Below the pieces are notes generated by a model. The model was not told the DNA's origin, made no database searches, and was given only the letters and a program-made list of their open reading frames with translations. A program made the translations under genes and the position numbers. Below, piece by piece: positions 2,706-43,010 of a stretch of DNA of 64,000 nucleotides; positions within the stretch are counted from its first letter, which is position 1, and the number at the start of each line of letters is the position of its first letter. The DNA is taken from NCBI RefSeq assembly GCF_053078305.1, contig NZ_CP166879.1, one strand, 5' to 3'.

Positions 2706-2986
2706 CTGGCACCTCCTTCAATCAGTGCGCAGCTGTGTGCAATATCCGTCAAATCTGCCCGCAGGTACTCCATCAGCGCGGCGACACCAGGCGCACAGCC
2801 TGCGTCCAGTGCTCCGGCCTGAGACGGGTATTCAGAAAAGAGAAGCTGGAGCATGTCGCAGGCATTTCTTGCGCGGATCAGCTTTCCGAAACCGTCCTCT
2901 GACAACCCATAGGCAAAAGCACCGGTATTGTGTTTTTCAGGCAAAGTGTGGCCCTGAGCACCGTTGTGCCCGTTTGAAATATTCAT
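2702..2986 (-). CDS. hypothetical protein (94 aa), island operon member
   Basis: ORF with GGAG Shine-Dalgarno upstream of ATG at 2986; stop overlaps the next gene start (2702-2705). Confidence 0.55.
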   Translation of the reverse strand: MNISNGHNGAQGHTLPEKHNTGAFAYGLSEDGFGKLIRARNACDMLQLLFSEYPSQAGALDAGCAPGVAALMEYLRADLTDIAHSCALIEGGAR

Positions 2987-3017
2987 CGTGAATTACTCCG
3001 TTTTCAGCGGTATTTTG

Positions 3018-3377
3018 TCAGAGAAACTTTGAATAGTGACCGTCGTCAGGCTCAGCAGAACGCCGTATGGTACGCTCCCGCCAGCGGATAAATAGCACAG
3101 ACGGATGCAGTGTCAGCGGGCCGGAACCACTACTGCCTGCAGGAGCTGGTGCAGGCTTAAAGAGCGGTACATCAAACAGGCGCGTATACCGCTGTTCAAA
3201 CCATGCCAGAGGGCAGGAAGAAAGCTGGTTGTCGCTGTCATGACGTATCAGCACTTCACAGCTGAATTCAGGATTAACCAGCGCCACAGAGGGCGAGGCT
3301 TCTATTAATCGGATAATCGTGACCGTCCAGCCACGTTCATGCCGCCAGCGTTCGCCGGGGTGCGGATAATTACGCAT
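3018..3377 (-). CDS. hypothetical protein (about 119 aa), island operon member
   Basis: Track ORF 3018..3407 begins on a non-ATG codon; an in-frame ATG at 3377 is preceded by GGAGGTGA, so the shorter start is preferred. Confidence 0.5.
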   Translation of the reverse strand: MRNYPHPGERWRHERGWTVTIIRLIEASPSVALVNPEFSCEVLIRHDSDNQLSSCPLAWFEQRYTRLFDVPLFKPAPAPAGSSGSGPLTLHPSVLFIRWRERTIRRSAEPDDGHYSKFL

Positions 3378-3546
3378 GTTCACCTCCGCAGGGAATGCGC
3401 CCGGCAAAGCTCAGTACACAGTCCGGGGCAAGTCTGCGCCGCGCTGACCGCTCATTATCTGCGGTGAGCCTTAACATCACAGGACGGGCATTGCGTTGAC
3501 TGCGGTTGATCGCCGCAAATAACCAGGTACACTTCTGTTTAGCCAT
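3370..3546 (-). CDS. small hypothetical protein (58 aa), first gene of the operon leading to the primase
   Basis: ATG at 3546 preceded by GAGG at good spacing; it is the C-terminal part of the track's 244-aa ORF 3370..4104, whose upstream portion looks non-coding. Confidence 0.35.
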   Translation of the reverse strand: MAKQKCTWLFAAINRSQRNARPVMLRLTADNERSARRRLAPDCVLSFAGRIPCGGEHA

Positions 3547-3621
3547 CTTCGTTACCTCATATAGCGGATTGGTCAGAAGCCCGGTTAGTGTTGCTGCACT
3601 GTCGGGCTTCGCACTCACAAG

Positions 3622-3713
3622 GTGAATCGCACCTTTAATTTTAAAGCTACCCTTAAGTGAATCGCACTTCAAGCTTTTTATTATCATTTTTTTTGCGTAT
3701 ACTGAATCGCACC
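3622..3713. promoter_or_regulatory. three direct repeats of TGAATCGCAC(C/T) in a divergent promoter region (candidate operator sites)
   Basis: Copies read directly at 3622-3633, 3657-3668 and 3702-3713, between the minus-strand operon start (3546) and the plus-strand small gene (3734). Confidence 0.5.
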
Positions 3714-3733
3714 TAACGCGAGGAGATCCAGTA

Positions 3734-3919
3734 ATGGCAACGAGTTCAACTAACAACAAGTCGCAGCAACTTAATGCTCGTTTCCCACATGATGTAGTTG
3801 CAGAATTAGAAAGCAACCTTGAAGATGGAGAAACGAAAGCGCAATTCATTGTTACTGCTGTAAAAGGCGAGATTAAACGCCGACAGCGCAGGAAAAATAA
3901 GCCAGAGCAAGGAAGTTGA
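3734..3919 (+). CDS. small basic protein (61 aa), possible ribbon-helix-helix-type DNA-binding regulator
   Basis: ATG at 3734 preceded by AGGAG; lysine/arginine-rich C-terminus; rho-independent terminator downstream. DNA-binding role is inferred. Confidence 0.55.
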   Translation: MATSSTNNKSQQLNARFPHDVVAELESNLEDGETKAQFIVTAVKGEIKRRQRRKNKPEQGS

Positions 3920-3982
3920 ATAGAGAAGCCAACAGACGTTCTCTCTGGTCCCATGTTAATTTCAGTAAGCGACAATATTTTT

Positions 3983-4016
3983 AAGCCCACAAATTCATTA
4001 TGTCGGGCTTTTTTAT
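3983..4016 (+). terminator. rho-independent terminator downstream of the 61-aa gene
   Basis: GC stem (aagccc...gggctt) followed by a T-run at 4009-4015. Confidence 0.5.
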
Positions 4017-4030
4017 TAGTGATTTTCATA

Positions 4031-4246
4031 TCACTCACCACGAGAGGCATATATTTGCTCTTGAATCCAGTGATCAACTTCGCTTTCAACGAATGAAATT
4101 GCACGAGTTCCTATTTTCACCGGACGGGGAAATGTATTGTTTGCAAGCTGTTTGTAAAGCCATGCCTTGCTACGCTGAACGCGTCTTAATACCTCTTTTG
4201 CTGAGATAAGAGTCTGATTATCTGAAAAGCTGTTTGCATATTCCAT
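4031..4246 (-). CDS. alpA: AlpA-family phage transcriptional regulator / excisionase-like protein (71 aa)
   Basis: Size and sequence character match AlpA-type regulators of P4-like islands; ATG at 4246 preceded by GGAG. Track ORF starts earlier at 4291. Confidence 0.7.
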   Translation of the reverse strand: MEYANSFSDNQTLISAKEVLRRVQRSKAWLYKQLANNTFPRPVKIGTRAISFVESEVDHWIQEQIYASRGE

Positions 4247-4530
4247 CTTGTTACTCCGTGTTCTACTTAAGTTCACGGTGACTTTAAACACTGGGAAAAA
4301 GTGATTCTAGTGATAATGGAATCTATTAAGACAAACATTGATTCTATTGAAAAACAATAATCTCCACTGAAAAAAAGAAGTAATATTCATATGAAAGAAC
4401 ACGGAAAGAAGGAAATGCACAAAACAATAAAATTAATAAAATTCATATAGATAGGATGGAAAATCAAAAAATCATACGTCAAAAGGTATTATTACATTTT
4501 AACGATTCATATTACCTAGGAATTAGCACA

Positions 4531-4560
4531 GTATTACACCGTATTACATCGTATTACCCC
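4531..4560. repeat. three perfect tandem 10-bp repeats GTATTACNNC
   Basis: gtattacacc / gtattacatc / gtattacccc read directly in the AT-rich intergenic region between the 212-aa gene and alpA. Confidence 0.6.
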
Positions 4561-4622
4561 CTATAGCCCCTTAGAGCCTCTTGTGGCCCTTCTATTGAGA
4601 GATAGCCAGAAAATTAATAAAT

Positions 4623-5261
4623 TCACTCTCCGTATTTTATAATGTCTTTCCCCAGCTTTATTTTCTTATAAAACGTAGCTTTTTTAATCCCTTTCATTAG
4701 AATCTCATTCTCATTACAAAAAGAAACAATATCATTATATATAACACTATTATCGCTATAACTTACCTTTCCATGTCTCTTAAGCAATTCAATTAGTAAA
4801 TAAATTAATTTACAACTATAATTATCCTCATCATCTTTTCTGTACTGCCCTCTACCATTACTCCTTAATTTTTTACCAACTTCACATAATTCACTTCCTC
4901 CTAACGTCATTAGAATATCGCTCCAATCTTTATTTTTTACCTGTTGTCGTAATGCGTTCTCAATTCTCTCCTTAATCTCCACAGGTACAATACCTTCCCT
5001 CTGAAAGATATAAGCAGCAGTTAATAATAAGTTCGCCTCCACTTTTTGCGTGGCGGATACGTTTTTATATTCATTAATTAATTGTAGATTTCTGGTTATT
5101 GCCTTTCTTAATCTAATAACCTCTTTTAATTGAACCTCAGTCAATTCATCATTTTCGGTATCATAGTCAAAACCATTCATAGCAAGCGCCACTTCGTGTG
5201 GCGTTATGTAAGTTAACCTATTAAAATAAAACAAATTATTATCAAATTGAGTATTGTTCAT
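4623..5261 (-). CDS. hypothetical protein (212 aa), AT-rich orphan cargo gene immediately downstream of the integrase
   Basis: ATG at 5261 preceded by GGAGAG; clean ORF; visibly AT-rich and rich in K/N/I/E codons compared with flanking core genes; no motif I can recognise. Confidence 0.7.
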   Translation of the reverse strand: MNNTQFDNNLFYFNRLTYITPHEVALAMNGFDYDTENDELTEVQLKEVIRLRKAITRNLQLINEYKNVSATQKVEANLLLTAAYIFQREGIVPVEIKERIENALRQQVKNKDWSDILMTLGGSELCEVGKKLRSNGRGQYRKDDEDNYSCKLIYLLIELLKRHGKVSYSDNSVIYNDIVSFCNENEILMKGIKKATFYKKIKLGKDIIKYGE

Positions 5262-5290
5262 TTAAATCTCTCCGCAGCCCCCAATGGTAA

Positions 5291-6574
5291 TTATTTTCCA
5301 TGCATACGCGCAAAATCATATGGTGTGATAGATCCATTCTTATTAGCATCAATATAATCAGCCCACCATTGCAACATTAATCTTCTTTCTTCAAGATATT
5401 CGGAAGTATGCATATATGAACCTTTCACGTTTTTTCGTTCAACGTGGCTTAACTGTCTTTCAATGGCATCATCATTCCATAGTTTCGACTCACTTAGCGC
5501 ACCACGCGCCATAGTTCTAAACCCATGACCACATACTTCAGTTTTCGTATCATATCCCATTACACGTAAGGCGTTATTTACTGTATTTTCACTCATTACT
5601 TTTTTAGGATCATGATCGCTGGGAAATATAACCTCACCTTTACCACTCAAGGCATGTAAACGTTTAAAAATATCAAATGCTTGTTTGCTAAGCGGAACAA
5701 TATGTTCAGTTTTCATCTTCATCCCACGCTCAGAGTGTTTTACGCCGGGAATAGGCTTACGAATTCCGGGTATTGTCCACTCGCTTCGTTCAAAGTTAAC
5801 CTCACTCCAGCGAGCAAAACGCATCTCACTTGAACGTATAAATGTGAGTAGCGTTAATTCAACGGCAAGCCGTGTCATTAGTCGCCCTTTATAGCGTGAT
5901 AGTCTTTCAAGAAGCTCAGGAATTCTTTTTGGGGGTAGTGCTGGGTGGTGGGTTGCTTTAACGCTTAAAAGCGCTCCAGCCATATCGCATGCAGGATTTG
6001 ATTCAAGCAGGTCATTCTGCACACCAAAACGCATAATTGCGGTTACGCGCTGCATCAGTCGCTGCGCGACATCATGTTTACCTGCCGTATCGACAGCTTT
6101 GATTGGATTGAGAAGCTGGCTGGTTCTCAACGTTCTGGCATCGATTTGACCTATCGAGGGGAAAATATACTGCTCAAGTGTCAGCAGAACACGACGGCTA
6201 TGATCTTCGCTCCAAGTAAGGTTACTTGCGTGCCATTGCCTTGCGATAGTTTCAAATAAATATGCCCCCTCAATTTCAGCTTGTGCCCCCTTTTGCTCAG
6301 CTTTGGGGTCAATACCCTGAGACAACAATTTCTTTGCTGCATCGCGCTTACCCCGCGCTTCAGCCAAAGTGACAGTCGGGTATACACCAAAAGCGAGTCG
6401 ATCTTCCTTTTTGTCAGAGGGGCGGCGATATTTCATGCGCCAGTACTTAGAACCTTTAGGGGAGACCTCAAGATACAAGCCGCCTCCATCAGCCATTTTA
6501 TAAGCTTTCTCTTTCGGCTTTGCGGTCTCTATCTGGCGAGCGTTGAGTTTCATTTTGGGGGCACAAATCCTCAT
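5291..6574 (-). CDS. P4-type tyrosine integrase (site-specific recombinase)
   Basis: 427-aa ORF adjacent to the tRNA 3' end; sequence character matches P4-family integrases. True start may be the internal Met at 6553. Confidence 0.85.
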   Translation of the reverse strand: MRICAPKMKLNARQIETAKPKEKAYKMADGGGLYLEVSPKGSKYWRMKYRRPSDKKEDRLAFGVYPTVTLAEARGKRDAAKKLLSQGIDPKAEQKGAQAEIEGAYLFETIARQWHASNLTWSEDHSRRVLLTLEQYIFPSIGQIDARTLRTSQLLNPIKAVDTAGKHDVAQRLMQRVTAIMRFGVQNDLLESNPACDMAGALLSVKATHHPALPPKRIPELLERLSRYKGRLMTRLAVELTLLTFIRSSEMRFARWSEVNFERSEWTIPGIRKPIPGVKHSERGMKMKTEHIVPLSKQAFDIFKRLHALSGKGEVIFPSDHDPKKVMSENTVNNALRVMGYDTKTEVCGHGFRTMARGALSESKLWNDDAIERQLSHVERKNVKGSYMHTSEYLEERRLMLQWWADYIDANKNGSITPYDFARMHGK

Positions 6575-6717
6575 CGAATTGACATGCCCCCGATTATGCC
6601 CCCAAAAGAGGGTAGACTACAAGAGACCAACAAAGACCATTAGATACCATACTTTACTTGTTTTTTAAGGATTTTTTTGTATTTAGAGACTTCAGGAAAC
6701 GTCAAAAGAAGTGTTAA

Positions 6718-6802
6718 TGGTGCCGAAGGCCGGACTCGAACCGGCACGTATTTCTACGGTTGATTTTGAATCAACTGCGTCTACCGATTTCGCCACTTCG
6801 GC
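6718..6802 (-). tRNA. leuX: tRNA-Leu (anticodon CAA)
   Basis: Reverse complement reads GCCGAAGTGGCGAAATCGGTAGACGCAGTTGATTCAAAATCAACCGTAGAAATACGTGCCGGTTCGAGTCCGGCCTTCGGCACCA, with the CCA end facing the integrase. Confidence 0.95.
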
Positions 6803-6997
6803 ACTGAAGAGGTATGCGGAAAACGTTGTGGATTATACCTGTCGCACGCCACCATGCAAGCGCCAGCTTGCTCGCACCTCGCTAAGTGCTGAAATTTTCA
6901 GCATTGCATACAGCGATGTGTAACCTTTGTCACACTCCAGGCACCCCTCCCTGCCATGCTCTACACTTCCCAGACAACACCAGAGAAGGACCAAAAA

Positions 6998-8017
6998 ATG
7001 TCGATGATAAAAAGCTATGCCGCAAAAGAAGCGGGCGGCGAACTGGAACTTTATGAGTACGATCCCGGTGAATTGAAGCCACAAGATGTTGAAGTGCAGG
7101 TGGATTACTGCGGGATCTGCCATTCCGATCTGTCGATGATCGACAACGAATGGGGATTTTCACAATATCCACTGGTTGCCGGGCATGAGGTGATTGGTCG
7201 CGTAGTGGCGCTCGGGAGTGCCGCGCAGGATAAAGGTTTGCAGGTCGGTCAGCGTGTCGGGATTGGCTGGACGGCACGCAGCTGCGGGCATTGCGATGCC
7301 TGTATTAGCGGTAATCAGATCAACTGCGAGCAAGGTGCGGTGCCGACGATTTTGAATCGCGGCGGTTTTGCCGAGAAGTTGCGTGCGGACTGGCAATGGG
7401 TAATCCCACTGCCAGAAAATATCGACATTGAATCTGCTGGGCCGCTGTTGTGCGGCGGTATCACGGTCTTTAAACCACTGTTGATGCACCATATCACTGC
7501 CACCAGCCGCGTCGGCGTGATTGGTATTGGCGGGCTGGGGCATATCGCTATAAAACTTCTGCACGCAATGGGATGCGAGGTGACAGCCTTTAGTTCTAAT
7601 CCGGCGAAAGAGCAGGAAGTACTGGCGATGGGTGCCGATAAAGTGGTGAATAGCCGCGATCCGCAGGCACTGAAAACTCTGGCGGGGCAGTTTGATCTCA
7701 TTATCAATACTGTGAACGTCAGCCTCGACTGGCAGCCTTATTTTGAGGCGCTGACCTATGGCGGTAATTTCCATACGGTCGGTGCGGTTCTCACGCCGCT
7801 GTCTGTTCCGGCCTTTACGTTAATTGCGGGCGACCGCAGCATCTCTGGTTCTGCTACCGGCACGCCTTATGAGCTGCGAAAGCTGATGCGCTTTGCCGCC
7901 CGTAGCAAGGTTGCGCCGACCACCGAACTGTTCCCGATGTCGAAAATTAACGACGCCATCCAGCATGTGCGCGACGGTAAGGCGCGTTACCGCGTGGTGT
8001 TGAAAGCCGATTTTTGA
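6998..8017 (+). CDS. ahr: NADPH-dependent aldehyde reductase (zinc alcohol dehydrogenase family)
   Basis: Protein from [14 protein letters not shown] matches E. coli Ahr/YjgB (339 aa) as recalled; track ORF starts 14 codons earlier. Confidence 0.93.
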
Positions 8018-8020
8018 AAA

Positions 8021-8584
8021 TCATTCGCAGCGCTGATCTGAGGCGCTGCCCTCTTTCGCACATATTCTGTTTTGTCGTATCGCCAGCACAGCCTGCCGAC
8101 ATTGTTCGGTGACATTGGCAATATCATGGTTGATATCAATGCGCACAATATCCTGTTCATCTGCTTGTGGACGCTCCAGCGCCTCAAACTGACTTTTTAG
8201 TAACGCTACCGGCATAAAATGCCCAGCCCGACGCTGCATTCGCGCGAGGATAGTTTCATAGTCGCCATCTAACCAGAGGAAATGAACATGGGGGCTACCC
8301 TTGCGTAAAATATCACGATACTGTTTTTTTAATGATGAACAGACAATAAATCCTGTTTCATTCTTTTTATAAAGACTGTATGAAGCATCATTTAAGCGTT
8401 CCAGCCAGGGAAGTCGATCTTCATCAGATAATGGAATACCCTGCGACATTTTATCTATATTTTTGGCTGGATGAAGATCGTCACCATCAATAAATTTAGC
8501 AGATAATAACGCGGCAACCTTGCTACCAATTAATGTTTTACCACTCCCTGAAACGCCCATCAAAATAAAGCTTTCACCCGCCAT
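8021..8584 (-). CDS. idnK: gluconokinase (thermosensitive, idonate pathway)
   Basis: 187 aa with GVSGSGKT P-loop; position in the idn cluster. Confidence 0.93.
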   Translation of the reverse strand: MAGESFILMGVSGSGKTLIGSKVAALLSAKFIDGDDLHPAKNIDKMSQGIPLSDEDRLPWLERLNDASYSLYKKNETGFIVCSSLKKQYRDILRKGSPHVHFLWLDGDYETILARMQRRAGHFMPVALLKSQFEALERPQADEQDIVRIDINHDIANVTEQCRQAVLAIRQNRICAKEGSASDQRCE

Positions 8585-8687
8585 TTAAAATCTCCTGAAT
8601 CATCTTACCTGCTGCGATACTACGCCTGGTGGCATAATAATTTCACGTTTTTTTATTTCTGCTGATAAGAATTACAAGGCACATCAC

Positions 8688-8699
8688 GTTATGCGTAAC
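8688..8699. promoter_or_regulatory. putative GntR/IdnR-type operator half-palindrome in the idnK-idnD divergent promoter
   Basis: Near-palindrome GTTATGCGTAAC read in the intergenic region; assignment by resemblance only. Confidence 0.3.
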
Positions 8700-8800
8700 A
8701 TAGTAATGTAACAATTTTCTGACGTGATCTTCATCACAAATAATGACAATTAAAACCGCTTAAATGCTTCCGAGGTGTCTACCTGACCAGTGAGGAATTT

Positions 8801-9832
8801 ATGCAAGTGAAAACACAGTCCTGCGTTGTTGCGGGCAAGAAAACTGTTGCCGTTACCGAGCAGACGATAGATTGGAATAATAATGGAACATTAGTACAAA
8901 TAACCCGAGGTGGAATTTGCGGTTCCGATTTACATTATTATCAGGAAGGAAAAGTAGGTAATTTCATGATAAAGGCACCGATGGTGTTAGGTCATGAAGT
9001 TATCGGTAAAGTTATTCATAGCGACTCATCAGAATTACATGAAGGGCAAACGGTAGCCATTAATCCGTCTAAACCGTGCGGTCACTGCAAATACTGCATT
9101 GAACATAACGAGAATCAGTGTACAGAGATGCGTTTTTTTGGCAGTGCCATGTATTTCCCTCATGTTGATGGTGGCTTTACCCGTTATAAAATGGTCGAAA
9201 CGTCGCAATGTGTCCCTTATCCGGCCAAAGCTGAAGAAAAGGTTATGGCTTTTGCCGAACCTTTAGCCGTCGCGATTCATGCCGCACATCAGGCCGGCGA
9301 GTTACAGGGCAAGCGAGTATTTATTTCTGGTGTTGGGCCCATTGGCTGCCTGATTGTCAGTGCTGTGAAAACACTGGGGGCCGCGGAAATTGTCTGTGCC
9401 GATGTGAGTCCCCGTTCCCTTTCGCTGGGCAAAGAGATGGGGGCGGATGTGCTCGTAAACCCACAAAACGACGACATGGATCACTGGAAAGCGGAAAAAG
9501 GCTATTTCGATGTCAGCTTTGAAGTGTCCGGTCATCCTTCATCAGTGAATACCTGTCTGGAGGTCACTCGTGCACGCGGCGTAATGGTGCAGGTAGGTAT
9601 GGGAGGCGCGATGGCAGAATTCCCAATGATGACGTTGATTGGTAAGGAGATTTCACTCAGAGGCTCTTTCCGTTTTACCAGCGAATTTAATACCGCAGTG
9701 TCATGGCTGGCGAATGGCGTTATCAATCCACTGCCTTTACTGAGTGCTGAATATCCCTTCACTGACCTGGAAGAGGCGCTACGTTTCGCCGGTGATAAAA
9801 CCCAGGCAGCAAAAGTCCAGCTTGTTTTCTAA
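8801..9832 (+). CDS. idnD: L-idonate 5-dehydrogenase
   Basis: 343-aa zinc-ADH-family protein in conserved position. Confidence 0.93.
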   Translation: MQVKTQSCVVAGKKTVAVTEQTIDWNNNGTLVQITRGGICGSDLHYYQEGKVGNFMIKAPMVLGHEVIGKVIHSDSSELHEGQTVAINPSKPCGHCKYCIEHNENQCTEMRFFGSAMYFPHVDGGFTRYKMVETSQCVPYPAKAEEKVMAFAEPLAVAIHAAHQAGELQGKRVFISGVGPIGCLIVSAVKTLGAAEIVCADVSPRSLSLGKEMGADVLVNPQNDDMDHWKAEKGYFDVSFEVSGHPSSVNTCLEVTRARGVMVQVGMGGAMAEFPMMTLIGKEISLRGSFRFTSEFNTAVSWLANGVINPLPLLSAEYPFTDLEEALRFAGDKTQAAKVQLVF

Positions 9833-9855
9833 GAGATAAATAAAGGAATAATACA

Positions 9856-10620
9856 ATGAACGATCTATTTTCACTGGCAGGAAAAAATATCTTGATTACC
9901 GGTTCAGCACAGGGCATTGGCTTTTTACTGGCAACCGGCCTGGGTAAATATGGCGCACAAATAATTATTAATGATATTACTGCCGAACGCGCAGAACTTG
10001 CTGTAGAAAAACTCCACCAGGAGGGTATTCAGGCCGTTGCCGCACCTTTTAATGTTACTCATAAACATGAAATTGATGCCGCCGTTGAACATATCGAAAA
10101 GGACATCGGCCCCATTGATGTGCTGGTGAATAACGCCGGTATCCAGCGCCGTCATCCTTTTACTGAGTTCCCTGAACAAGAGTGGAATGATGTGATCGCA
10201 GTAAACCAGACCGCCGTGTTCCTGGTATCGCAAGCGGTAACTCGTCACATGGTTGAACGCAAGGCAGGTAAAGTTATTAATATTTGCTCGATGCAAAGCG
10301 AACTGGGACGTGACACCATCACCCCTTATGCCGCATCGAAAGGGGCGGTAAAAATGCTCACCCGCGGCATGTGCGTCGAGCTGGCGCGCCACAATATTCA
10401 GGTCAACGGTATTGCGCCGGGCTATTTCAAAACAGAAATGACTAAAGCACTGGTTGAGGACGAAGCCTTCACCGCCTGGTTGTGCAAACGGACCCCCGCC
10501 GCACGCTGGGGAGATCCGCAGGAACTGATTGGTGCTGCGGTGTTCCTTTCTTCAAAAGCCTCTGATTTCGTAAACGGCCACCTGTTGTTTGTTGATGGCG
10601 GCATGTTAGTGGCTGTTTAA
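9856..10620 (+). CDS. idnO: 5-keto-D-gluconate 5-reductase (short-chain dehydrogenase)
   Basis: 254-aa SDR with TGSAQGIG Rossmann motif. Confidence 0.93.
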   Translation: MNDLFSLAGKNILITGSAQGIGFLLATGLGKYGAQIIINDITAERAELAVEKLHQEGIQAVAAPFNVTHKHEIDAAVEHIEKDIGPIDVLVNNAGIQRRHPFTEFPEQEWNDVIAVNQTAVFLVSQAVTRHMVERKAGKVINICSMQSELGRDTITPYAASKGAVKMLTRGMCVELARHNIQVNGIAPGYFKTEMTKALVEDEAFTAWLCKRTPAARWGDPQELIGAAVFLSSKASDFVNGHLLFVDGGMLVAV

Positions 10621-10682
10621 CAGCCCCCCCTACGTGCAGCGCGAAAGCGCTGCTTTTCTGGCACTAATAAGAGATAAAGACT

Positions 10683-12002
10683 ATGCCATTAATCATTATT
10701 GCGGCAGGCGTCGCGCTGCTTCTTATCCTGATGATCGGCTTTAAAGTTAACGGCTTTATTGCCCTCGTTCTGGTAGCTGCCGTCGTCGGATTTGCCGAAG
10801 GGATGGATGCACAGGCCGTCCTGCACTCTATACAAAATGGTATCGGCAGCACGCTCGGCGGGCTGGCAATGATCCTCGGTTTCGGGGCCATGTTAGGCAA
10901 GCTGATTTCTGATACGGGTGCGGCACAACGTATCGCCACTACGCTGATTGCTACTTTTGGTAAAAAACGCGTGCAATGGGCGCTAGTGATCACCGGTCTG
11001 GTTGTGGGCCTCGCCATGTTTTTTGAAGTGGGTTTTGTCCTGCTGTTGCCGTTGGTATTTACCATCGTAGCATCATCAGGATTACCCCTGTTGTATGTTG
11101 GTGTACCAATGGTAGCAGCGCTCTCTGTAACCCACTGTTTTCTGCCGCCACATCCAGGGCCTACTGCCATCGCGACTATCTTTGAGGCTAATCTCGGAAC
11201 GACTTTACTGTATGGATTTATCATTACCATTCCGACAGTTATTGTCGCAGGACCGCTGTTTTCTAAACTGCTAACTCGCTTTGAGAAAGCACCACCGGAA
11301 GGCTTATTTAATCCTCATCTGTTTAGCGAAGAGGAGATGCCCTCCTTCTGGAACAGTATTTTCGCTGCCGTGATCCCGGTCATCCTGATGGCTATCGCCG
11401 CCGTTTGTGAAATTACGTTACCGAAAACTAACACCGTGCGCCTCTTCTTTGAATTTGTCGGTAACCCTGCCGTTGCGCTGTTTATTGCCATTGTTATTGC
11501 GATTTTCACACTGGGCCGACGTAATGGACGCACCATCGAGCAAATCATGGATATCATTGGGGATTCTATAGGCGCTATCGCGATGATTGTGTTTATTATC
11601 GCTGGCGGCGGCGCGTTTAAGCAGGTATTAGTAGATAGCGGTGTCGGGCACTATATTTCACACTTAATGACCGGAACTACACTTTCGCCGTTATTGATGT
11701 GCTGGACTGTTGCGGCGCTGTTGCGTATCGCTCTGGGCTCTGCCACCGTCGCGGCCATTACCACCGCGGGTGTGGTGTTGCCGATTATCAACGTTACCCA
11801 TGCCGATCCCGCTTTAATGGTACTGGCAACCGGTGCGGGCAGCGTGATCGCGTCACACGTAAACGACCCTGGCTTCTGGCTATTTAAAGGGTATTTTAAT
11901 CTGACGGTTGGTGAAACGTTGCGTACCTGGACGGTGATGGAAACCCTTATTTCTATTATGGGTTTGCTGGGGGTGTTAGCCATTAACGCCGTATTGCACT
12001 GA
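10683..12002 (+). CDS. idnT: L-idonate/5-ketogluconate/gluconate transporter (GntP family)
   Basis: 439-aa polytopic membrane protein in the idn cluster. Confidence 0.93.
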   Translation: MPLIIIAAGVALLLILMIGFKVNGFIALVLVAAVVGFAEGMDAQAVLHSIQNGIGSTLGGLAMILGFGAMLGKLISDTGAAQRIATTLIATFGKKRVQWALVITGLVVGLAMFFEVGFVLLLPLVFTIVASSGLPLLYVGVPMVAALSVTHCFLPPHPGPTAIATIFEANLGTTLLYGFIITIPTVIVAGPLFSKLLTRFEKAPPEGLFNPHLFSEEEMPSFWNSIFAAVIPVILMAIAAVCEITLPKTNTVRLFFEFVGNPAVALFIAIVIAIFTLGRRNGRTIEQIMDIIGDSIGAIAMIVFIIAGGGAFKQVLVDSGVGHYISHLMTGTTLSPLLMCWTVAALLRIALGSATVAAITTAGVVLPIINVTHADPALMVLATGAGSVIASHVNDPGFWLFKGYFNLTVGETLRTWTVMETLISIMGLLGVLAINAVLH

Positions 12003-12068
12003 AAGAATAAAATATTGTGATGTAGTTTCGGGGGAAGATTGAAGATTCCCCCGACGTTGGGAGAAGTT

Positions 12069-13067
12069 ATGCGCAATCACAGAATTTCTTTACAGGATAT
12101 CGCTACGCTGGCTGGCGTAACAAAAATGACCGTGAGTCGTTATATCCGCTCGCCGAAAAAGGTGGCAAAGGAAACAGGCGAGCGCATCGCCAAAATTATG
12201 GAAGAGATCAATTATATCCCTAATCGCGCTCCCGGCATGTTGTTGAATGCACAAAGTTATACCCTCGGTATCTTGATTCCGTCATTTCAAAATCAACTCT
12301 TCGCTGACATTCTCGCGGGAATAGAATCCGTCACCTCTGAGCATAATTATCAGACCCTTATTGCTAATTACAATTACGATCGCGATTCCGAAGAAGAGTC
12401 GGTGATTAACCTGCTCTCTTATAACATTGACGGGATTATACTTTCGGAAAAATATCACACCATCAGGACGGTGAAATTTCTGCGTTCAGCCACCATTCCG
12501 GTCGTGGAATTGATGGATGTACAGGGAGAACGGCTGGATATGGAGGTCGGTTTTGATAATCGGCAGGCCGCTTTTGACATGGTGTGTACCATGCTGGAGA
12601 AGCGAGTCAGGCACAAAATTCTGTATCTCGGTTCCAAAGATGACACCCGCGATGAACAGCGTTATCAGGGGTATTGCGATGCGATGATGCTGCATAATCT
12701 TTCCCCATTACGCATGAATCCACGCGCCATCTCATCCATTCATTTAGGAATGCAGTTAATGCGTGATGCCCTTAGCGCAAACCCGGATTTAGACGGTGTA
12801 TTTTGCACCAATGACGATATTGCGATGGGTGCGCTTCTGCTGTGCCGCGAGCGAAACCTCGCCGTGCCAGAACAAATTTCCATTGCGGGTTTTCATGGGC
12901 TGGAGATTGGCAGGCAAATGATCCCAAGCCTCGCCAGCGTAATTACTCCCCGTTTTGATATTGGTCGGATGGCCGCCCAAATGTTGCTGAGCAAAATTAA
13001 AAATAACGATCACAACCACAACACTGTTGACCTCGGGTATCAGATTTATCACGGCAACACGCTTTAG
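12069..13067 (+). CDS. idnR: LacI-family transcriptional regulator of the idn operon
   Basis: Helix-turn-helix N-terminus ([20 protein letters not shown]); start set at the internal Met to give 332 aa. Confidence 0.9.
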
Positions 13068-13144
13068 GTTATTTTCTCTTCATTACACGTATTCTCTTTG
13101 CCGGACGTTGCCTATACTCCAGGCAGGAAACTGGAGGAAATCTC

Positions 13145-14647
13145 ATGAGCGACCCCCTGTTAATTGCACGCACGCCGGACACAGAACTGTTTTTACTGCC
13201 GGGAATGGCTAACCGTCACGGGCTGATTACTGGCGCAACGGGGACGGGTAAAACCGTTACGCTGCAAAAACTGGCTGAGTCTCTATCGGAAATCGGCGTG
13301 CCGGTGTTTATGGCTGATGTGAAAGGCGATCTGACCGGTATCGCGCAGGCAGGAACGGCGTCGGAAAAACTGCTCACAAGGCTTAAAAATATCGGCGTCA
13401 ATGACTGGCAACCGCATGCCAATCCGGTGGTGGTGTGGGATATCTTTGGCGAGAAAGGCCATCCGGTGCGGGCGACGGTTTCGGATCTGGGGCCGCTGTT
13501 GCTGGCACGACTGTTGAATCTCAACGATGTGCAATCTGGCGTGCTGAATATCATCTTCCGCATTGCTGATGATCAGGGGCTGTTACTGCTCGACTTTAAA
13601 GATTTGCGGGCGATTACCCAGTACATCGGCGATAACGCCAAATCCTTCCAGAATCAGTACGGAAATATCAGTAGCGCATCGGTTGGTGCCATCCAGCGCG
13701 GGCTGTTATCGCTGGAACAGCAAGGCGCAACACACTTTTTTGGTGAGCCGATGCTGGATATCAAAGACTGGATGCGCACCGATGCCAACGGTAAAGGCGT
13801 TATCAATATCCTCAGCGCCGAGAAGCTTTATCAGATGCCGAAACTGTACGCCGCCAGTCTGCTGTGGATGCTTTCAGAGTTGTATGAACAATTGCCGGAA
13901 GCGGGCGATCTGGAGAAACCAAAACTGGTGTTTTTTTTCGACGAGGCACATCTGCTGTTTAACGATGCCCCGCAGGTACTGCTGGATAAGATTGAGCAGG
14001 TGATAAGGCTTATTCGCTCAAAAGGCGTGGGCGTCTGGTTCGTTTCGCAAAACCCGTCTGATATTCCGGATAATGTGCTCGGCCAGCTCGGTAATCGCGT
14101 TCAACATGCTTTGCGGGCTTTTACGCCCAAAGATCAGAAAGCGGTAAAAGCTGCGGCGCAAACCATGCGGGCCAATCCGGCGTTTGATACCGAAAAGGCG
14201 ATTCAGGAACTGGGCACCGGCGAGGCGTTGATCTCTTTTCTGGATGCGAAAGGAAGCCCTTCTGTGGTGGAGCGTGCGATGGTGATCGCGCCTTGTTCGC
14301 GGATGGGGCCGGTGACGGAAGATGAGCGTAATGGCTTGATTAATCACTCTCCGGTGTATGGCAAGTACGAGGATGACGTGGACCGGGAATCCGCCTATGA
14401 GATGTTGCAAAAAGGCTTTCAGGCCAGTAACGAGCAGCAAAATAACCCCCCCGCGAAAGGGAAAGAGGTAGCGGTGGATGACGGCATTCTTGGTGGATTG
14501 AAGGATATTTTGTTTGGCACTACCGGACCACGCGGCGGGAAGAAAGATGGTGTGGTGCAAACAATGGCCAAAAGCGCCGCTCGCCAGGTAACGAATCAGA
14601 TTGTACGCGGGATGTTGGGGAGTTTGCTGGGGGGGAGAAGAAGGTAA
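13145..14647 (+). CDS. yjgR: HerA/FtsK-like P-loop NTPase (DUF853 family), function uncharacterized
   Basis: 500 aa with GATGTGKT Walker A. Confidence 0.9.
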
Positions 14648-14705
14648 GTCAGGCGAGATTTGTCTTTGCCTGATGCGACGCTGGCGCGTCTTATCATGCC
14701 CACCC
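14648..14705. repeat. REP element
   Basis: gcctgatgcgacgctggcgcgtcttatcatgcc-type palindromic unit after yjgR. Confidence 0.6.
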
Positions 14706-14771
14706 CACAGCAATATATTGAATTTTAATTATTTTTCAGGAATGAACGAAGCACACTTTGCTAACAATAAT

Positions 14772-14797
14772 AAAGGGAGCTTTCGCTCCCTTTATTC
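14772..14797. terminator. hairpin terminator between yjgR and lptG
   Basis: aaagggagc-tttc-gctcccttt stem-loop flanked by T/A runs. Confidence 0.6.
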
Positions 14798-14807
14798 GTT
14801 CATTCGG

Positions 14808-15890
14808 TTACGATTTTCTCATTAACAGCCACAGGCTGATTAAGAAGAAGCTGGCGCTTGGCAACAGTGCGCCAATGATCGGCGGGATGCCGTAAACCAA
14901 CGTCAGCGGACCGAAGATCTGGTCCAGTACGTAGAAGACAAAACCGAAGCTAATACCGGTGACCACACGCACACCCATCGGTACGCTACGCAGTGGGCCA
15001 AAGATGAACGACAGCGCCATCAGCATCATCACCGCCACGGATAGCGGCTGGAAGATTTTGCTCCACATGTTGAGCTGATAACGTCCGGCATCCTGACCGC
15101 TCGACTTCAGATACTTCACATAGTTGTGCAAACCGCTGATAGAGAGTGCATCCGGGTCCAGCGCCACCACGCCCAGTTTGTCAGGCGTGAGGTTGGTTTT
15201 CCAGGTGCCGCTCACCGTCTGCGAACCGGTGATCTGTTTCGGATTGGTCAGATCAGATTCATCAACCTGCGACAGACGCCAGACTTTATGTTCCGGGTCA
15301 AACTTCGCAGTAGCGGCATAGCGTACGGATTGCAGACGACGATTCTCGTTAAAGGCATAAATGCTGATGCCACCTAACTCTTCGTCACCTTTAACCCGCT
15401 CAATGTAGACGAAGTTGTTGCCATCTTTCGCCCATAAGCCTTGCTGGGTAGAGAGCAACGAGCCGCCGTACATCGCCTGCGCACGGTAGTTACGCGCCAT
15501 CTGCTCGCCCTGCGGCGCGACCCATTCACCAATCGCCATCGTCAGTAAGACCAGCGGAATGGCGGTTTTCATCACCGACAGCGCAACCTGCATACGGGTG
15601 AAACCAGAAGCCTGCATCACCACCAGTTCGCTGCGCTGCGCCAGCATCCCAAGACCAAGCAACGCCCCAAGCAGAGCCGCCATCGGGAAGAAGATTTGCA
15701 CATCTTTCGGCACGCTCAGCAAGGTATACATTCCTGCGCCTAACGCGTCGTAACTCCCCTGCCCGGCTTTTTTCAGCTGATCGACAAACTTGATAATGCC
15801 CGACAGCGACACCAGCATGAACAGCGTCATCATGATGGTGGTGAAAATAGTTTTACCGATATAGCGGTCAAGTACGCCAAAAGGTTGCAT
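14808..15890 (-). CDS. lptG: LPS export ABC transporter permease
   Basis: 360 aa starting MQPFGVLDRY; start overlaps lptF stop. Confidence 0.95.
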   Translation of the reverse strand: MQPFGVLDRYIGKTIFTTIMMTLFMLVSLSGIIKFVDQLKKAGQGSYDALGAGMYTLLSVPKDVQIFFPMAALLGALLGLGMLAQRSELVVMQASGFTRMQVALSVMKTAIPLVLLTMAIGEWVAPQGEQMARNYRAQAMYGGSLLSTQQGLWAKDGNNFVYIERVKGDEELGGISIYAFNENRRLQSVRYAATAKFDPEHKVWRLSQVDESDLTNPKQITGSQTVSGTWKTNLTPDKLGVVALDPDALSISGLHNYVKYLKSSGQDAGRYQLNMWSKIFQPLSVAVMMLMALSFIFGPLRSVPMGVRVVTGISFGFVFYVLDQIFGPLTLVYGIPPIIGALLPSASFFLISLWLLMRKS

Positions 15891-16990
15891 CACACCGCTC
15901 CTTTACGCGAAAAACTGGCGCGCAGGCGGCGGACCGGCACGGTGTCCCAAAGGTTGAGAACAATCGCCAAAGCCAGATAAATCAGGTTAACGGTCCACAT
16001 CCACAGCGTCGGGTCCAGCTTACCTTTACCGCCGTTCGATTTCAGGGAGGTCTGGATCAGGAAGAAAAGTAGATACAGCAGCATGGCTGGCAGCATCGAC
16101 AGTACGCGTCCCTGACGTGGGTTAACCACGCTCAGCGGTACGACCATAAGTGCCATCATAAACACGGTGAATACCAACGTGATACGCCAGTTCAGTTCTG
16201 CGCGAGCACGATCGGTGTCAGTGTTCCACAATGTGCGCATGTCCATCTGGTCGGTATCGTTCGGGTCGAGCGCCACCGCCTGGTGACCAATGATCGCCTG
16301 ATAATCCTGGAAATCCGTAATGCGGAAATCACGTAACAGTGCAGTGCCTTCGAAGCGCGTTCCCTGGTTGAGAGTGACGACCTGGGAGCCGTCGCGCAGC
16401 TGGGTTAAATGTCCGGAATCGGCCACCACCACAGAAGGACGTGCATTACCTTTTGGTCGAATTTGCGCGAGGAACACATCTTTGAAATCGCTGCCGTCAA
16501 CGCTTTCGATGAACAGCACCGAACTGCCATTAGTCGCTTGCTGGAATTGCCCTTGCGCCAGCGCCGCCATGCCAGGGTTCGCTTTCGCTTCTGCTAACAC
16601 TTCATCCTGATGACGCGATGACCACGGTCCCGCCCACATCACGTTAACCGCCGCGACGATTGCCGTGAATACCGCAAGGATCATTGCCGCTTTCACCAGA
16701 ACCGCTTTGCTCAGGCCGCAGGCATGCATTACCGTAATTTCACTTTCGGTATACAGTTTGCCCAGCGTCATCAGCAGCCCGAGGAACAGGCTTAATGGCA
16801 GGATAAGCTGCGCCATTTCCGGCACGCCCAACCCGAGAAGGGAGAGCACCAGATTCGCCGGAATATCGCCGTCAACCGCTGCGCCGAGGATCCTCACTAA
16901 CTTTTGACAGAAGAAGATCAAAAGCAAGATGAAGAGTATCGCCAGCTGGCTTTTGAGCGTCTCCCGCACCAGATATCTTATGATTATCAC
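15890..16990 (-). CDS. lptF: LPS export ABC transporter permease
   Basis: 366 aa, divergent from pepA. Confidence 0.95.
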   Translation of the reverse strand: MIIIRYLVRETLKSQLAILFILLLIFFCQKLVRILGAAVDGDIPANLVLSLLGLGVPEMAQLILPLSLFLGLLMTLGKLYTESEITVMHACGLSKAVLVKAAMILAVFTAIVAAVNVMWAGPWSSRHQDEVLAEAKANPGMAALAQGQFQQATNGSSVLFIESVDGSDFKDVFLAQIRPKGNARPSVVVADSGHLTQLRDGSQVVTLNQGTRFEGTALLRDFRITDFQDYQAIIGHQAVALDPNDTDQMDMRTLWNTDTDRARAELNWRITLVFTVFMMALMVVPLSVVNPRQGRVLSMLPAMLLYLLFFLIQTSLKSNGGKGKLDPTLWMWTVNLIYLALAIVLNLWDTVPVRRLRASFSRKGAV

Positions 16991-17253
16991 TTTAAATACG
17001 CCCGTAAAAACTCGTCTTTTGCAGGATTTTAGCTTGTTTCATGGCTTAAACGTCATTTATTCTCTTGAGTCGTCGAAATCGTCGCTAAGATAATTATACT
17101 CAACGGATTCACCTCTCAGATTTTGTTCTGACGTGCCAATGCCGTAATAACGTTAAGATTAACACGAAGTCATCGCAACAGCGGACATGAGTTACGAAAG
17201 CTTGCAATTCTATCTGTAGCCACCGCCGTTGTCTTTAAGATTCAGGAGCGTAG

Positions 17254-18768
<1,515 letters not shown>

Positions 18769-18769
18769 T

Positions 18770-19092
<323 letters not shown>

Positions 19093-19121
19093 ATTTAAAT
19101 CCACCACAAGAAGCCCCATAT

Positions 19122-19565
19122 ATGAAAAACGCGACGTTCTACCTTCTGGACAATGACACCACCGTCGATGGCTTAAGCGCCGTTGAGCAGTTGGTGTGTG
19201 AAATTGCCGCAGAACGTTGGCGCAGCGGTAAGCGCGTGCTCATCGCCTGTGAAGATGAAAAGCAGGCTTACCGGCTGGATGAAGCCCTGTGGGCGCGTCC
19301 GGCAGAAAGCTTTGTTCCGCATAATTTAGCGGGAGAAGGACCGCGCGGCGGTGCGCCGGTGGAGATCGCCTGGCCGCAAAAACGCAGCAGCAGCCCGCGC
19401 GATATATTGATTAGTCTGCGAACAAGCTTTGCAGATTTTGCCACCGCTTTCACAGAAGTGGTAGACTTCGTTCCTTATGAAGATTCTCTGAAACAACTGG
19501 CGCGCGAACGCTATAAAGCCTACCGCGTGGCTGGTTTCAACCTGAATACGGCAACCTGGAAATAA
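19122..19565 (+). CDS. holC: DNA polymerase III chi subunit
   Basis: 147 aa; stop overlaps valS ATG by one base. Confidence 0.95.
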
Positions 19566-22420
19566 TGGAAAAGACATATAACCCACAAGATATCGAACAG
19601 CCGCTTTACGAGCACTGGGAAAAGCAGGGCTACTTTAAGCCTAATGGCGATGAAAGCCAGGAGAGTTTCTGCATCATGATCCCGCCGCCGAACGTCACCG
19701 GCAGTTTGCATATGGGTCACGCCTTCCAGCAAACCATCATGGATACCATGATCCGCTATCAGCGCATGCAGGGCAAAAACACCCTGTGGCAGGTCGGTAC
19801 TGACCACGCCGGGATCGCTACCCAGATGGTCGTTGAGCGCAAGATTGCCGCAGAAGAAGGTAAAACCCGTCACGACTACGGCCGCGAAGCTTTCATCGAC
19901 AAAATCTGGGAATGGAAAGCGGAATCCGGCGGCACGATTACCCGTCAGATGCGCCGTCTCGGCAACTCCGTCGACTGGGAGCGTGAACGCTTCACCATGG
20001 ACGAAGGCCTGTCCAATGCGGTGAAAGAAGTTTTCGTTCGTCTGTATAAAGAAGACCTGATTTACCGTGGCAAACGCCTGGTAAACTGGGACCCGAAACT
20101 GCGCACCGCTATCTCTGACCTGGAAGTGGAAAACCGCGAATCGAAAGGTTCGATGTGGCACATCCGCTATCCGCTGGCTGACGGTGCGAAAACCGCAGAC
20201 GGTAAAGATTATCTGGTGGTCGCGACTACCCGTCCGGAAACCCTGCTGGGCGATACTGGCGTAGCCGTTAACCCGGAAGATCCGCGTTACAAAGATCTGA
20301 TTGGCAAATATGTCATTCTGCCGCTGGTTAACCGTCGTATTCCGATCGTTGGCGACGAACACGCCGACATGGAAAAAGGCACCGGCTGCGTGAAAATCAC
20401 TCCGGCGCACGACTTTAACGACTATGAAGTGGGTAAACGTCACGCGCTGCCGATGATCAACATCCTGACCTTTGACGGCGATATCCGTGAAAGCGCCCAG
20501 GTGTTCGATACCAAAGGTAACGAATCTGACGTTTATTCCAGCGAAATCCCGGCAGAGTTCCAGAAACTCGAGCGTTTTGCTGCACGTAAAGCAGTCGTTG
20601 CTGCGGTTGACGCACTCGGCCTGCTGGAAGAAATTAAACCGCACGACCTGACCGTTCCTTACGGCGACCGTGGCGGCGTAGTTATCGAACCAATGCTGAC
20701 CGACCAGTGGTACGTGCGTGCCGATGTACTGGCGAAACCGGCGGTTGAAGCGGTTGAGAACGGCGACATTCAGTTCGTACCGAAGCAGTACGAAAACATG
20801 TACTTCTCCTGGATGCGCGATATTCAGGACTGGTGTATCTCTCGTCAGCTGTGGTGGGGTCACCGTATCCCGGCATGGTACGACGAAGCAGGTAACGTTT
20901 ATGTTGGCCGCAACGAAGAAGAAGTGCGCAAGGAAAATAACCTCGGTGCCGACGTTGCCCTGCGTCAGGACGAAGACGTTCTCGACACCTGGTTCTCTTC
21001 TGCGCTGTGGACCTTCTCTACCCTAGGCTGGCCGGAAAACACCGACGCACTGCGCCAGTTCCACCCAACCAGCGTGATGGTATCTGGTTTCGACATCATC
21101 TTCTTCTGGATTGCCCGCATGATCATGATGACCATGCACTTCATCAAAGATGAAAATGGCAAACCGCAGGTGCCGTTCCACACCGTTTACATGACCGGCC
21201 TGATTCGTGATGACGAAGGCCAGAAGATGTCCAAATCCAAGGGTAACGTTATCGACCCACTGGATATGGTTGACGGTATTTCGCTGCCAGAACTGCTGGA
21301 AAAACGTACCGGCAATATGATGCAGCCGCAGCTGGCGGACAAAATCCGTAAGCGCACCGAGAAGCAGTTCCCGAACGGTATTGAGCCGCACGGTACTGAC
21401 GCGCTGCGCTTCACCCTGGCGGCACTGGCTTCTACCGGTCGTGACATCAACTGGGATATGAAGCGCCTGGAAGGTTACCGTAACTTCTGTAACAAGCTGT
21501 GGAACGCCAGCCGCTTTGTGCTGATGAACACGGAAGGTCAGGATTGCGGCTTCAACGGTGGTGAAATGACGCTGTCGCTGGCGGACCGCTGGATTCTGGC
21601 AGAGTTCAACCAGACCATCAAAGCGTACCGCGAAGCGCTGGACAGCTTCCGCTTCGATATCGCTGCAGGCATTCTGTATGAGTTCACCTGGAACCAGTTC
21701 TGTGACTGGTATCTCGAGCTGACCAAGCCGGTAATGAACGGTGGCACCGAAGCAGAACTGCGCGGTACTCGCCATACGCTGGTGACTGTACTGGAAGGTC
21801 TGCTGCGCCTCGCGCATCCGATCATTCCGTTCATCACCGAAACCATCTGGCAGCGTGTGAAAGTACTTTGCGGTATCACTGCCGACACCATCATGCTGCA
21901 GCCGTTCCCGCAGTACGATGCATCTCAGGTTGATGAAGCCGCACTGGCCGACACCGAATGGCTGAAACAGGCGATCGTTGCGGTACGTAACATCCGTGCA
22001 GAAATGAACATCGCGCCGGGCAAACCGCTGGAGCTGCTGCTGCGTGGTTGCAGCGCGGATGCAGAACGTCGCGTAAATGAAAACCGTGGCTTCCTGCAAA
22101 CGCTGGCGCGTCTGGAAAGCATCACCGTGCTGCCTGCCGATGACAAAGGTCCGGTTTCCGTTACGAAGATCATCGACGGCGCAGAGCTGCTGATCCCGAT
22201 GGCTGGCCTCATCAACAAAGAAGATGAGCTGGCGCGTCTGGCGAAAGAAGTGGCGAAGATCGAAGGCGAAATCAGCCGTATCGAGAACAAGCTGGCGAAT
22301 GAAGGCTTTGTCGCCCGCGCACCGGAAGCGGTCATCGCGAAAGAGCGTGAGAAGCTGGAAGGCTATGCGGAAGCGAAAGCGAAACTGATTGAACAGCAGG
22401 CTGTTATCGCCGCGCTGTAA
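19565..22420 (+). CDS. valS: valyl-tRNA synthetase
   Basis: 951 aa with HMGH and KMSKS class I motifs. Confidence 0.97.
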
Positions 22421-22444
22421 TCAAAACACAGTGATGAAAACGAA

Positions 22445-22471
22445 GGCCGGAGCATGCTCCGGCCTTTTTTA
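22445..22471. terminator. rho-independent terminator between valS and yjgN
   Basis: ggccggagcatgctccggcc hairpin followed by TTTTTT. Confidence 0.8.
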
Positions 22472-22475
22472 TCTC

Positions 22476-35745: not shown

Positions 35746-35885
35746 AAGGAGTCCCTCCGCACTGTCTGAAACAGTACAGAAATGTCTTCAGGCGTGGCGA
35801 AGCCTTACCTGAAGGTAATAAAGCTGAGCAGGGACGTTAAAACGTCACGGCCTTACGCATCCGGTAACGCCGTGAAAAGACGGGC
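35746..35885 (-). promoter_or_regulatory. mgtA leader RNA between mgtL and mgtA (Mg2+/proline-responsive)
   Basis: Position between the proline-rich leader ORF and mgtA; role from established knowledge. Confidence 0.6.

Positions 35886-42859: not shown

Positions 42860-43010
<151 letters not shown>

Follow-up and report, generated by a model that had tools for sequence, protein, structure and literature searches.

Characterised members of the HerA/FtsK superfamily of P-loop ATPases act in chromosome segregation, DNA-end resection, conjugation, virus packaging and phage defence, and the question raised by yjgR, a widely conserved Escherichia coli 'y-gene' that is still without an assigned function, is what its product could do as a motor that stands alone. 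We addressed this question with the copy of yjgR in a stretch of 64,000 nucleotides (the window) from contig NZ_CP166879.1 of NCBI RefSeq assembly GCF_053078305.1, which an earlier reading of the letters alone (the original prediction) had described as a conserved, solitary ATPase. Earlier work has already recorded the yjgR gene and its family, the binding of ATP by YjgR and, in Protein Data Bank (PDB) entry 11kk, a structure with six chains. What we add is a reading towards which the evidence tips on balance: YjgR would be a catalytically intact HerA-clade motor lacking the HAS barrel, which would form a ring, likely pump DNA, be tethered to the membrane and serve a housekeeping or stress-phase function.

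A core gene of Escherichia coli

The gene is an intact open reading frame (ORF), as judged from the ORF list, the match to Pfam family PF05872, the RefSeq annotation and the ratio of nonsynonymous to synonymous substitution rates (dN/dS):

13145-14647, + strand: yjgR coding sequence, ATG start, 500 amino acids plus stop

Its upstream neighbour is idnR, a LacI-family ORF on the + strand that ends at 13067 and leaves a gap of 77 bp, and its downstream neighbour across 160 bp is the convergent lptG (14808-15893, − strand, Pfam LptF_LptG), so that the earlier placement of yjgR alone between the idn genes and lptG stands. The same position between idnR and lptG is found in 5,422 of the 5,426 complete E. 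coli genomes, counted with a 2-kb segment around yjgR as the query and at least 80% of the query length matched. Comparisons with the K-12, E. albertii, Citrobacter and Enterobacter orthologues gave dN/dS values of 0.03-0.07, with the linker and the tail (described below) constrained too. Thus, yjgR is a real core gene under strong purifying selection. The RefSeq name for the matching gene is yjgR, 'helicase HerA-like C-terminal domain-containing protein'. The window DNA is 97.9% identical to MG1655 yjgR, which has the same neighbours (idnR-yjgR-lptG), and the encoded protein is about 98% identical both to K-12 YjgR and to the PDB 11kk chain.

Two further observations concern the allele itself. 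The best identity of the 2-kb yjgR segment (12900-14900) to any of the 5,426 complete E. coli genomes is 98.0%, while the 17-kb backbone around it (6900-24000) reaches 99.2%, above the yjgR segment; the window allele may have been acquired as a short recombinant segment from a donor lineage outside the genome collection. The window protein is nevertheless 99% identical to database E. coli proteins. An antisense ORF of 231 amino acids (14018-14713, − strand, TTG start, rich in Arg, His and Pro) overlaps the 3' third of yjgR, and the constrained sense frame most likely accounts for it as a shadow ORF.

Family assignment and the catalytic core

The Pfam family PF05872 (HerA_C, the renamed DUF853) matches residues 6-500 of YjgR over profile positions 4-502 of 502, with an E-value of 7.5e-254 and 843.4 bits against a cut-off of 22, which is far beyond chance. 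YjgR therefore belongs to the DUF853/HerA_C family of P-loop ATPases, within the HerA/FtsK superfamily. The original prediction of a 500-residue P-loop NTPase of the DUF853 family with the motif GATGTGKT is borne out by the ORF, by the motif at residues 30-37 and by the full-length PF05872 match. The main elements of the core are as follows:

13232-13255, + strand: Walker A motif (P-loop) GATGTGKT, residues 30-37, placed by motif position
13478-13789, + strand: insertion separating the two Walker motifs, mostly alpha-helical in the AlphaFold2 model, about residues 112-215
13928-13945, + strand: Walker B motif VFFFDE, residues 262-267, placed by motif
14015-14053, + strand: RSKG…SQ motif, residues 291-303, with candidate trans arginine finger R291 and candidate sensor Q302

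In an alignment of 40 diverse family members, the Walker A residues G30, G33, G35 and K36 are invariant, as are E45, D58-x-K60-G61-D62, Q130, D306 and H321. Conservation is at least 90% for D266, E267, A268 and H269 around Walker B and for R291, S292, G294 and Q302 in the RSKG…SQ motif. The three motifs fit the superfamily signature of Walker A GxxGxGK[ST], Walker B hhhhDE and a conserved Arg/Gln block downstream of Walker B. This conservation of the Walker A, Walker B and RSKG…SQ residues points to an intact catalytic apparatus, in which R291 would be the trans-acting arginine finger and Q302 the sensor. A phmmer comparison aligned residues 250-338 to the 'GRKxG…SQRPS' block of the SIR2-associated HerA, chain 8wiv_A. 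ATP binding at the P-loop has been shown by a high-throughput peptide-centric local stability assay (HT-PELSA), in which YjgR peptides that lie on or adjoin the P-loop were strongly stabilised by ATP in E. coli lysate (preprint 10.1101/2025.04.28.650974). The insertion comprises helices 112-123, 128-143, 151-163, 165-172, 177-192 and 206-210, all predicted by AlphaFold2 with a predicted local distance difference test score (pLDDT) above 94.

The family is large: at E <= 1e-30 a scan of 1.84 billion cluster representatives returned 1,679 clusters (50% identity), and relaxing the threshold to E <= 1e-3 raised the number to 7,840. Some representatives carry N-terminal extensions in which no Pfam domain was found, and these may be mis-called starts. 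NCBIfam holds no equivalog for YjgR, and its HerA, CedD, VirB4, TraC and anti-phage HerA models match the ATPase core only, scoring 15-50 bits where the cut-offs are 500-1000. Neither NCBIfam nor the searchable literature yielded a characterised orthologue of defined function, and no functional study of yjgR was found in the latter; the original prediction, which would fall on clear orthology to a characterised housekeeping ATPase, came through this search unchanged.

A 'YjgR family' has been placed within the HerA clade by Iyer et al. (2004), as they are cited in a review (PMC7766704). The same review assigns the cyanobacterial 'FtsK' to the 'YjgR family', for which an interaction with the Anabaena divisome (ZipN) has been reported. 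We considered a divisome link on this basis and dropped it, as Sll0284 is described as combining DUF87 with a HAS barrel at its N-terminus (PMC8136920) and so is a classical HerA-like protein outside PF05872.

Structure and fold relatives

The PDB entry 11kk, named 'HerA like helicase YjgR', lists six chains, from which we infer that six YjgR subunits form a ring; no paper for this entry was found in the searchable literature. The AlphaFold2 monomer model (pLDDT 89) was compared with fold libraries that did not include 11kk. The comparison figures were 28.1 for Sulfolobus solfataricus HerA, 27.4 for the DndH/DptH C-domain, 26.4 for the VirB4 C-domain, 24.3 for Deinococcus radiodurans HerA, 21.9 for TrwB and 14.9 for FtsK, which place YjgR in the HerA/VirB4/TrwB branch of the FtsK-HerA superfamily. 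Structure prediction had been proposed as a check on the original claim, and the monomer fold agrees with FtsK-HerA superfamily ATPases. For the HAS barrel there was no Pfam match at E <= 0.01, and in the model only two short strands stand before the P-loop strand. The 29 residues ahead of Walker A are too few to form such a barrel.

Genomic neighbourhood

The neighbourhood analysis covered the best 80 loci of at least 599 relatives found in a scan of 100,044 species genomes. Each locus was anchored on its tblastn match, ORFs in high-GC genomes were filtered by third-codon-position G+C content (GC3), and the neighbours were clustered. The loci span Entero-, Beta-, Gamma- and Alphaproteobacteria, Acidobacteria, Verrucomicrobiota, Spirochaetes, Planctomycetota and Clostridia, and among them no neighbour is conserved beyond the order level and no family lies within three genes on either side in more than 25 of the 80. 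The commonest neighbours are purD (25/80) and yebC (23/80), and the recurrence of purD, yebC, hemF and upp is almost confined to betaproteobacterial loci (Burkholderiales, Rhodocyclaceae, Gallionellaceae and unclassified metagenome-assembled genomes). Neighbours otherwise follow the lineage, with idnR and lptG in enterobacteria, ppiA in Yersinia and a Cys/Met pyridoxal phosphate (PLP) enzyme in Acinetobacter, and overall they are genes of metabolism or housekeeping. Three distant metagenomic representatives have metabolic neighbours or lie on contigs of insufficient length for an assessment. No nuclease, Sir2, DUF4297, methylase, secretion or defence gene was linked in the 80 loci or in the three metagenomic look-ups. 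YjgR is thus shown to be without a conserved genomic partner, in agreement with the earlier view of a stand-alone ATPase with no partner nuclease.

In the betaproteobacteria, mainly Burkholderiales and Rhodocyclaceae, the yjgR homologue divergently adjoins yebC (TACO1/YebC family) and purD, an arrangement that about 25 of the 80 loci share and that is probably lineage synteny.

The C-terminal linker and tail

Beyond the catalytic core, which extends over residues 1 to about 430, YjgR continues with a variable linker and then a conserved basic amphipathic C-terminal helix:

14444-14539, + strand: low-complexity flexible linker, about residues 434-465, where pLDDT drops from above 95 to 40-55
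14540-14644, + strand: conserved basic amphipathic tail, residues 466-500, a proposed membrane-targeting helix

In 39 family representatives, between 111 and 295 residues follow the conserved GEAL[VI]S motif (residues 359-364 of the query). This segment takes in the C-terminal helices of the core, the linker and the tail, and its length differs mostly in the gapped linker region of the alignment. The tail carries a strongly conserved family motif at the extreme C-terminus, …S-x-x-R-x-x-G-R-x-x-x-R-G-[ILV]-[LF]-G-[ST]-[LI]-K/R-K/R, which distant members retain although their linkers differ. Among 98 representatives with a complete C-terminus, 39 end in R-[GSN]-x-[LFM]-G plus basic residues and a further 25 have looser amphipathic or basic tails, while a transmembrane (TM)-like segment substitutes for the tail in 4 by an automatic threshold and in about 8-10 by eye (P0140, P0224, P0242, P0249, P0255 and P0265, among others). 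Other homologues carry recognisable domains after the core, namely TerD (P0142, P0152), GYF_2 (P0235) and Ltp (P0145, with Ltp repeats). With such exchanges among homologues, the C-terminus of the family looks like a swappable localisation or adaptor module.

AlphaFold2 predicts the tail helix at residues 471-494 with low confidence. The tail has a hydrophobic moment of 0.53 (shuffles, 0.36 ± 0.11) and a mean net charge of +4.3, and MinD membrane-targeting sequences score similarly on the same scale. In STEPdb (PMC6677119 supplement), YjgR is listed as a peripheral inner-membrane protein. The conserved motif, the amphipathicity, the TM-like substitutes and the STEPdb entry together lead us to propose that the tail is probably a membrane tether.

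Promoter, leader and terminator

The noncoding sequence on either side of yjgR contains the following elements:

13085-13087, + strand: ACA, MazF cleavage site 60 nt before the ATG, its position matching that in PMC5001579
13112-13118, + strand: CTATACT, a −10-like element 27-33 nt before the ATG, conserved across genera
13133-13137, + strand: GGAGG, Shine-Dalgarno sequence 7 nt before the ATG, read from the sequence
14668-14700, no strand assigned: REP-like palindromic element just past the yjgR stop, sequence GCCTGATGCGACGCTGGCGCGTCTTATCATGCC
14769-14796, no strand assigned: G+C-rich hairpin between the convergent yjgR and lptG, a likely bidirectional terminator

A block 20-40 nt before the ATG, GTTGCCTATACTCCAGGCAGGA, is kept in Escherichia, Citrobacter and Enterobacter despite unrelated sequence farther upstream, and the Enterobacter Ag1 version of CTATACT is CTATGCT. 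We take CTATACT to fit the sigma-S-type −10 consensus CTAYRCT; a simple scan for sigma-70 promoters gave no complete −35/−10 pair upstream of yjgR. The conserved CTATACT indicates a putative promoter belonging to yjgR itself. In E. coli O157:H7, yjgR rises by 2.24 log2 at the transition from exponential to stationary phase (PMC2241611). MazF has been reported to cleave the yjgR 5' untranslated region at an ACA 60 nt from the start (PMC5001579, Table 1), so some transcripts must begin at least 60 nt upstream, at most 17 nt past the idnR stop or inside idnR. A Genomic SELEX (systematic evolution of ligands by exponential enrichment) study found a binding peak of the RpoE and RpoH holoenzymes inside yjgR (PMC5493296), which makes antisense transcription possible. 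Loss-of-function mutations in yjgR have been associated with larger colonies in experimental evolution (10.1101/355404).

The leader also holds an inverted repeat, CTCCAG-N8-CTGGAG (13117-13137), the 3' arm of which overlaps the Shine-Dalgarno GGAGG. The repeat would occur only in longer read-through or MazF-processed transcripts, and it is partly conserved in Citrobacter and Enterobacter.

Downstream, the palindrome at 14668-14700 is presumably a repetitive extragenic palindromic (REP) element, and the 2-kb yjgR query found a median of 3 matching places per E. coli genome, as expected from a repeated element in the query. For the hairpin, RNAfold gave −17.6 kcal/mol over 14755-14810, with a 12-bp stem formed by AATAAAGGGAGC and GCTCCCTTTATT; a simple terminator scan did not list it. 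From its folding, it is likely a bidirectional terminator for yjgR and lptG.

Proposed mechanism and rival explanations

Under the reading that we favour, six subunits would form a ring and hydrolyse ATP at their interfaces through K36, D266/E267 and R291 acting in trans, and the ATP cycle would draw through the central pore a polymer that, if HerA, TrwB and FtsK are a guide, would most likely be DNA. The motor would hang on the cytoplasmic face of the inner membrane via its linker of variable length and the basic amphipathic C-terminal helix, so that its motor-linker-anchor order would reverse the FtsK layout of anchor, linker and motor. Its function would be housekeeping or stress-phase, with expression from its own conserved promoter and a level that rises on entry into stationary phase.

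Several points weigh against this reading. The ring is drawn from the chain count of the 11kk entry, and the assignment of the promoter to sigma-S from a 7-nt match and one array study. The amphipathicity of the tail is modestly above that of shuffles, with a median per-tail p of 0.08 and p < 0.05 in 12 of 45 tails, and AlphaFold2 confidence for the tail is below 50. YjgR is missing from the membrane-proteome supplements of PMC4858940 and PMC6697469, files that may be incomplete, and the STEPdb entry also gives 'cytoplasmic' (PMC6677119 supplement). Instead of lipid, the ligand of the basic tail could be nucleic acid or a partner protein.

There are three other readings of YjgR. In HerA-NurA structures, the HAS barrel is the docking site of NurA on HerA, and its absence from YjgR counts against a soluble HerA-type DNA-repair or recombination helicase with an unlinked nuclease and a tail that binds DNA or a partner protein, which we regard as unlikely. 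Such a helicase would sit well with archaeal and Deinococcus HerA as the closest solved folds, with the name 'HerA like helicase' given by the 11kk depositors, with the Arg/Lys-rich tail and with the cytoplasmic assignment in the PMC6677119 supplement. However, no linked nuclease appears in 80+ loci, the HerA equivalog models fail (NF040937, 37.8 bits vs 800; NF040819, 29.4 bits vs 970), and the TM-like tail substitutes of homologues are hard to reconcile with a DNA-binding tail. A membrane-associated protein or peptide motor or coupling ATPase, resembling VirB4, a type IV coupling protein (T4CP) or EccC, would account for the near-equal similarity to VirB4 and has precedent in protein-translocating relatives such as EccC. 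We consider it quite unlikely, with no secretion-system genes nearby in any lineage examined, VirB4, TraC and EccC models far under their cut-offs, and no N-terminal TM segment (maximum 19-residue Kyte-Doolittle mean of 1.14).

Finally, YjgR might be the motor subunit of an anti-phage system, as HerA is in SIR2-HerA and DUF4297-HerA and mad8 is in MADS, and its effector would then be encoded at another site. Its best PADLOC match is indeed mad8 (1.3e-19, a partial match), it has partial matches to HerA defence models, and its structural neighbours include the SIR2-HerA and DUF4297-HerA complexes. Yet the mad8 score of 68.8 bits is small beside the 843 bits for PF05872, the anti-phage HerA equivalogs reach 17-18 bits against cut-offs of 800-850, and no effector adjoins yjgR in any lineage examined. 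The gene keeps a fixed core position under strong purifying selection and has no island-like context, the mobile island of the window ending at leuX about 6 kb away. A defence role is therefore very improbable. The original preference for a housekeeping role over defence gains from the core presence in 5,422 of 5,426 genomes, the lack of a linked defence gene and the weak defence-model scores, and yjgR should not be counted as a defence gene in genome screens for HerA-like ATPases.

Our preferred reading of a membrane-tethered, HAS-less motor can be taken one step further, to a generalisation that we offer tentatively and regard as rather doubtful. The YjgR family may be 'reverse FtsK' lone hexameric pumps, each positioned by an exchangeable C-terminal address module that a flexible leash connects to the motor; the module would usually be the basic amphipathic helix and in some lineages a TM helix, TerD, GYF_2 or Ltp. 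In E. coli, the substrate would then be DNA or another polymer, handled at the inner membrane as cells pass into stationary phase. If true, this would be a housekeeping activity without a described counterpart. The picture of a partner-less, probably membrane-tethered motor with a putative promoter of its own and induction at the stationary transition narrows the range of useful experiments.

Other features of the window

Positions 1-6802 are a mobile island integrated at the tRNA-Leu(CAA) gene leuX (6718-6802, − strand), with a tyrosine integrase at 5291-6574 (− strand). Only 336 of the 5,426 complete E. coli genomes carry it, and its identity to strain EC20 is 99.9%. Matching records show a TOPRIM/DUF927 primase-like gene, an AlpA/helix-turn-helix (HTH) regulator and a DUF5375 gene, and the island ORFs 3370-4104 and 4623-5261 (both − strand) have no Pfam match. 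The island looks like a phage-satellite or an element of the phage-inducible chromosomal island (PICI) type.

Rfam matches at gathering score lie at 17815-18009 (−), 35839-35954 (−), 18843-19014, 42864-42934, 46163-46240, 52403-52481 (−) and 61972-62151 (+). Their identities are the Ysr276 antisense RNA inside pepA, an Mg2+ riboswitch (Magnesium-II), five naRNA4 (REP-derived) elements, and the small RNAs STnc450 and ES036.

Comparison with known systems

Within the YjgR/DUF853 family, the window protein is an allele of the type member, from which it shows no difference of substance. The archaeal HerA and the Deinococcus HerA of the HerA-NurA resection motor share 14-19% identity with YjgR, which differs in having neither a HAS barrel nor NurA, and its linker and basic amphipathic tail are outside the definition of HerA. 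In type IV secretion systems (T4SS), the comparable motors are TrwB/VirD4 and the VirB4 C-terminal domain. Compared with these, YjgR lacks the N-terminal TM anchor and has no T4SS or relaxase genes nearby; TrwB_AAD_bind matches with 24.1 bits over residues 20-64 around the P-loop only, and the VirB4, TraC and TrbE models give 14-32 bits against cut-offs of 520-1020.

The defence HerA-like ATPases (SIR2-HerA/Nezha, DUF4297-HerA, the DndH/DptH C-domain and MADS mad8) differ from YjgR, which has no effector and is encoded in the core genome and not in an island. The PADLOC HerA models match YjgR in part and more weakly than mad8 does. The mad8 match spans YjgR residues 23-366, and its profile of 314 positions is, as in YjgR, too short for a HAS barrel; the two may share a short-form HerA-like ancestor.

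The tail invites comparison with the targeting helices of MinD and FtsA, which are likewise short, basic and amphipathic, lie at the extreme C-terminus and have a similar hydrophobic moment. We take comparator tails of this type often to end in …LFG/LG plus K/R, as in the YjgR family. Their host proteins are unrelated to YjgR, for which the putative membrane-targeting role is drawn from STEPdb, the TM substitutes and the amphipathicity. By the criteria for FtsK/SpoIIIE, that is, the FtsK_SpoIIIE motor hidden Markov model (HMM), an N-terminal TM domain and a gamma domain, YjgR fails, whereas in overall plan it shares with them the superfamily, the stand-alone housekeeping character and the joining of a motor, through a flexible linker of low complexity, to a membrane attachment, which is probable in YjgR.

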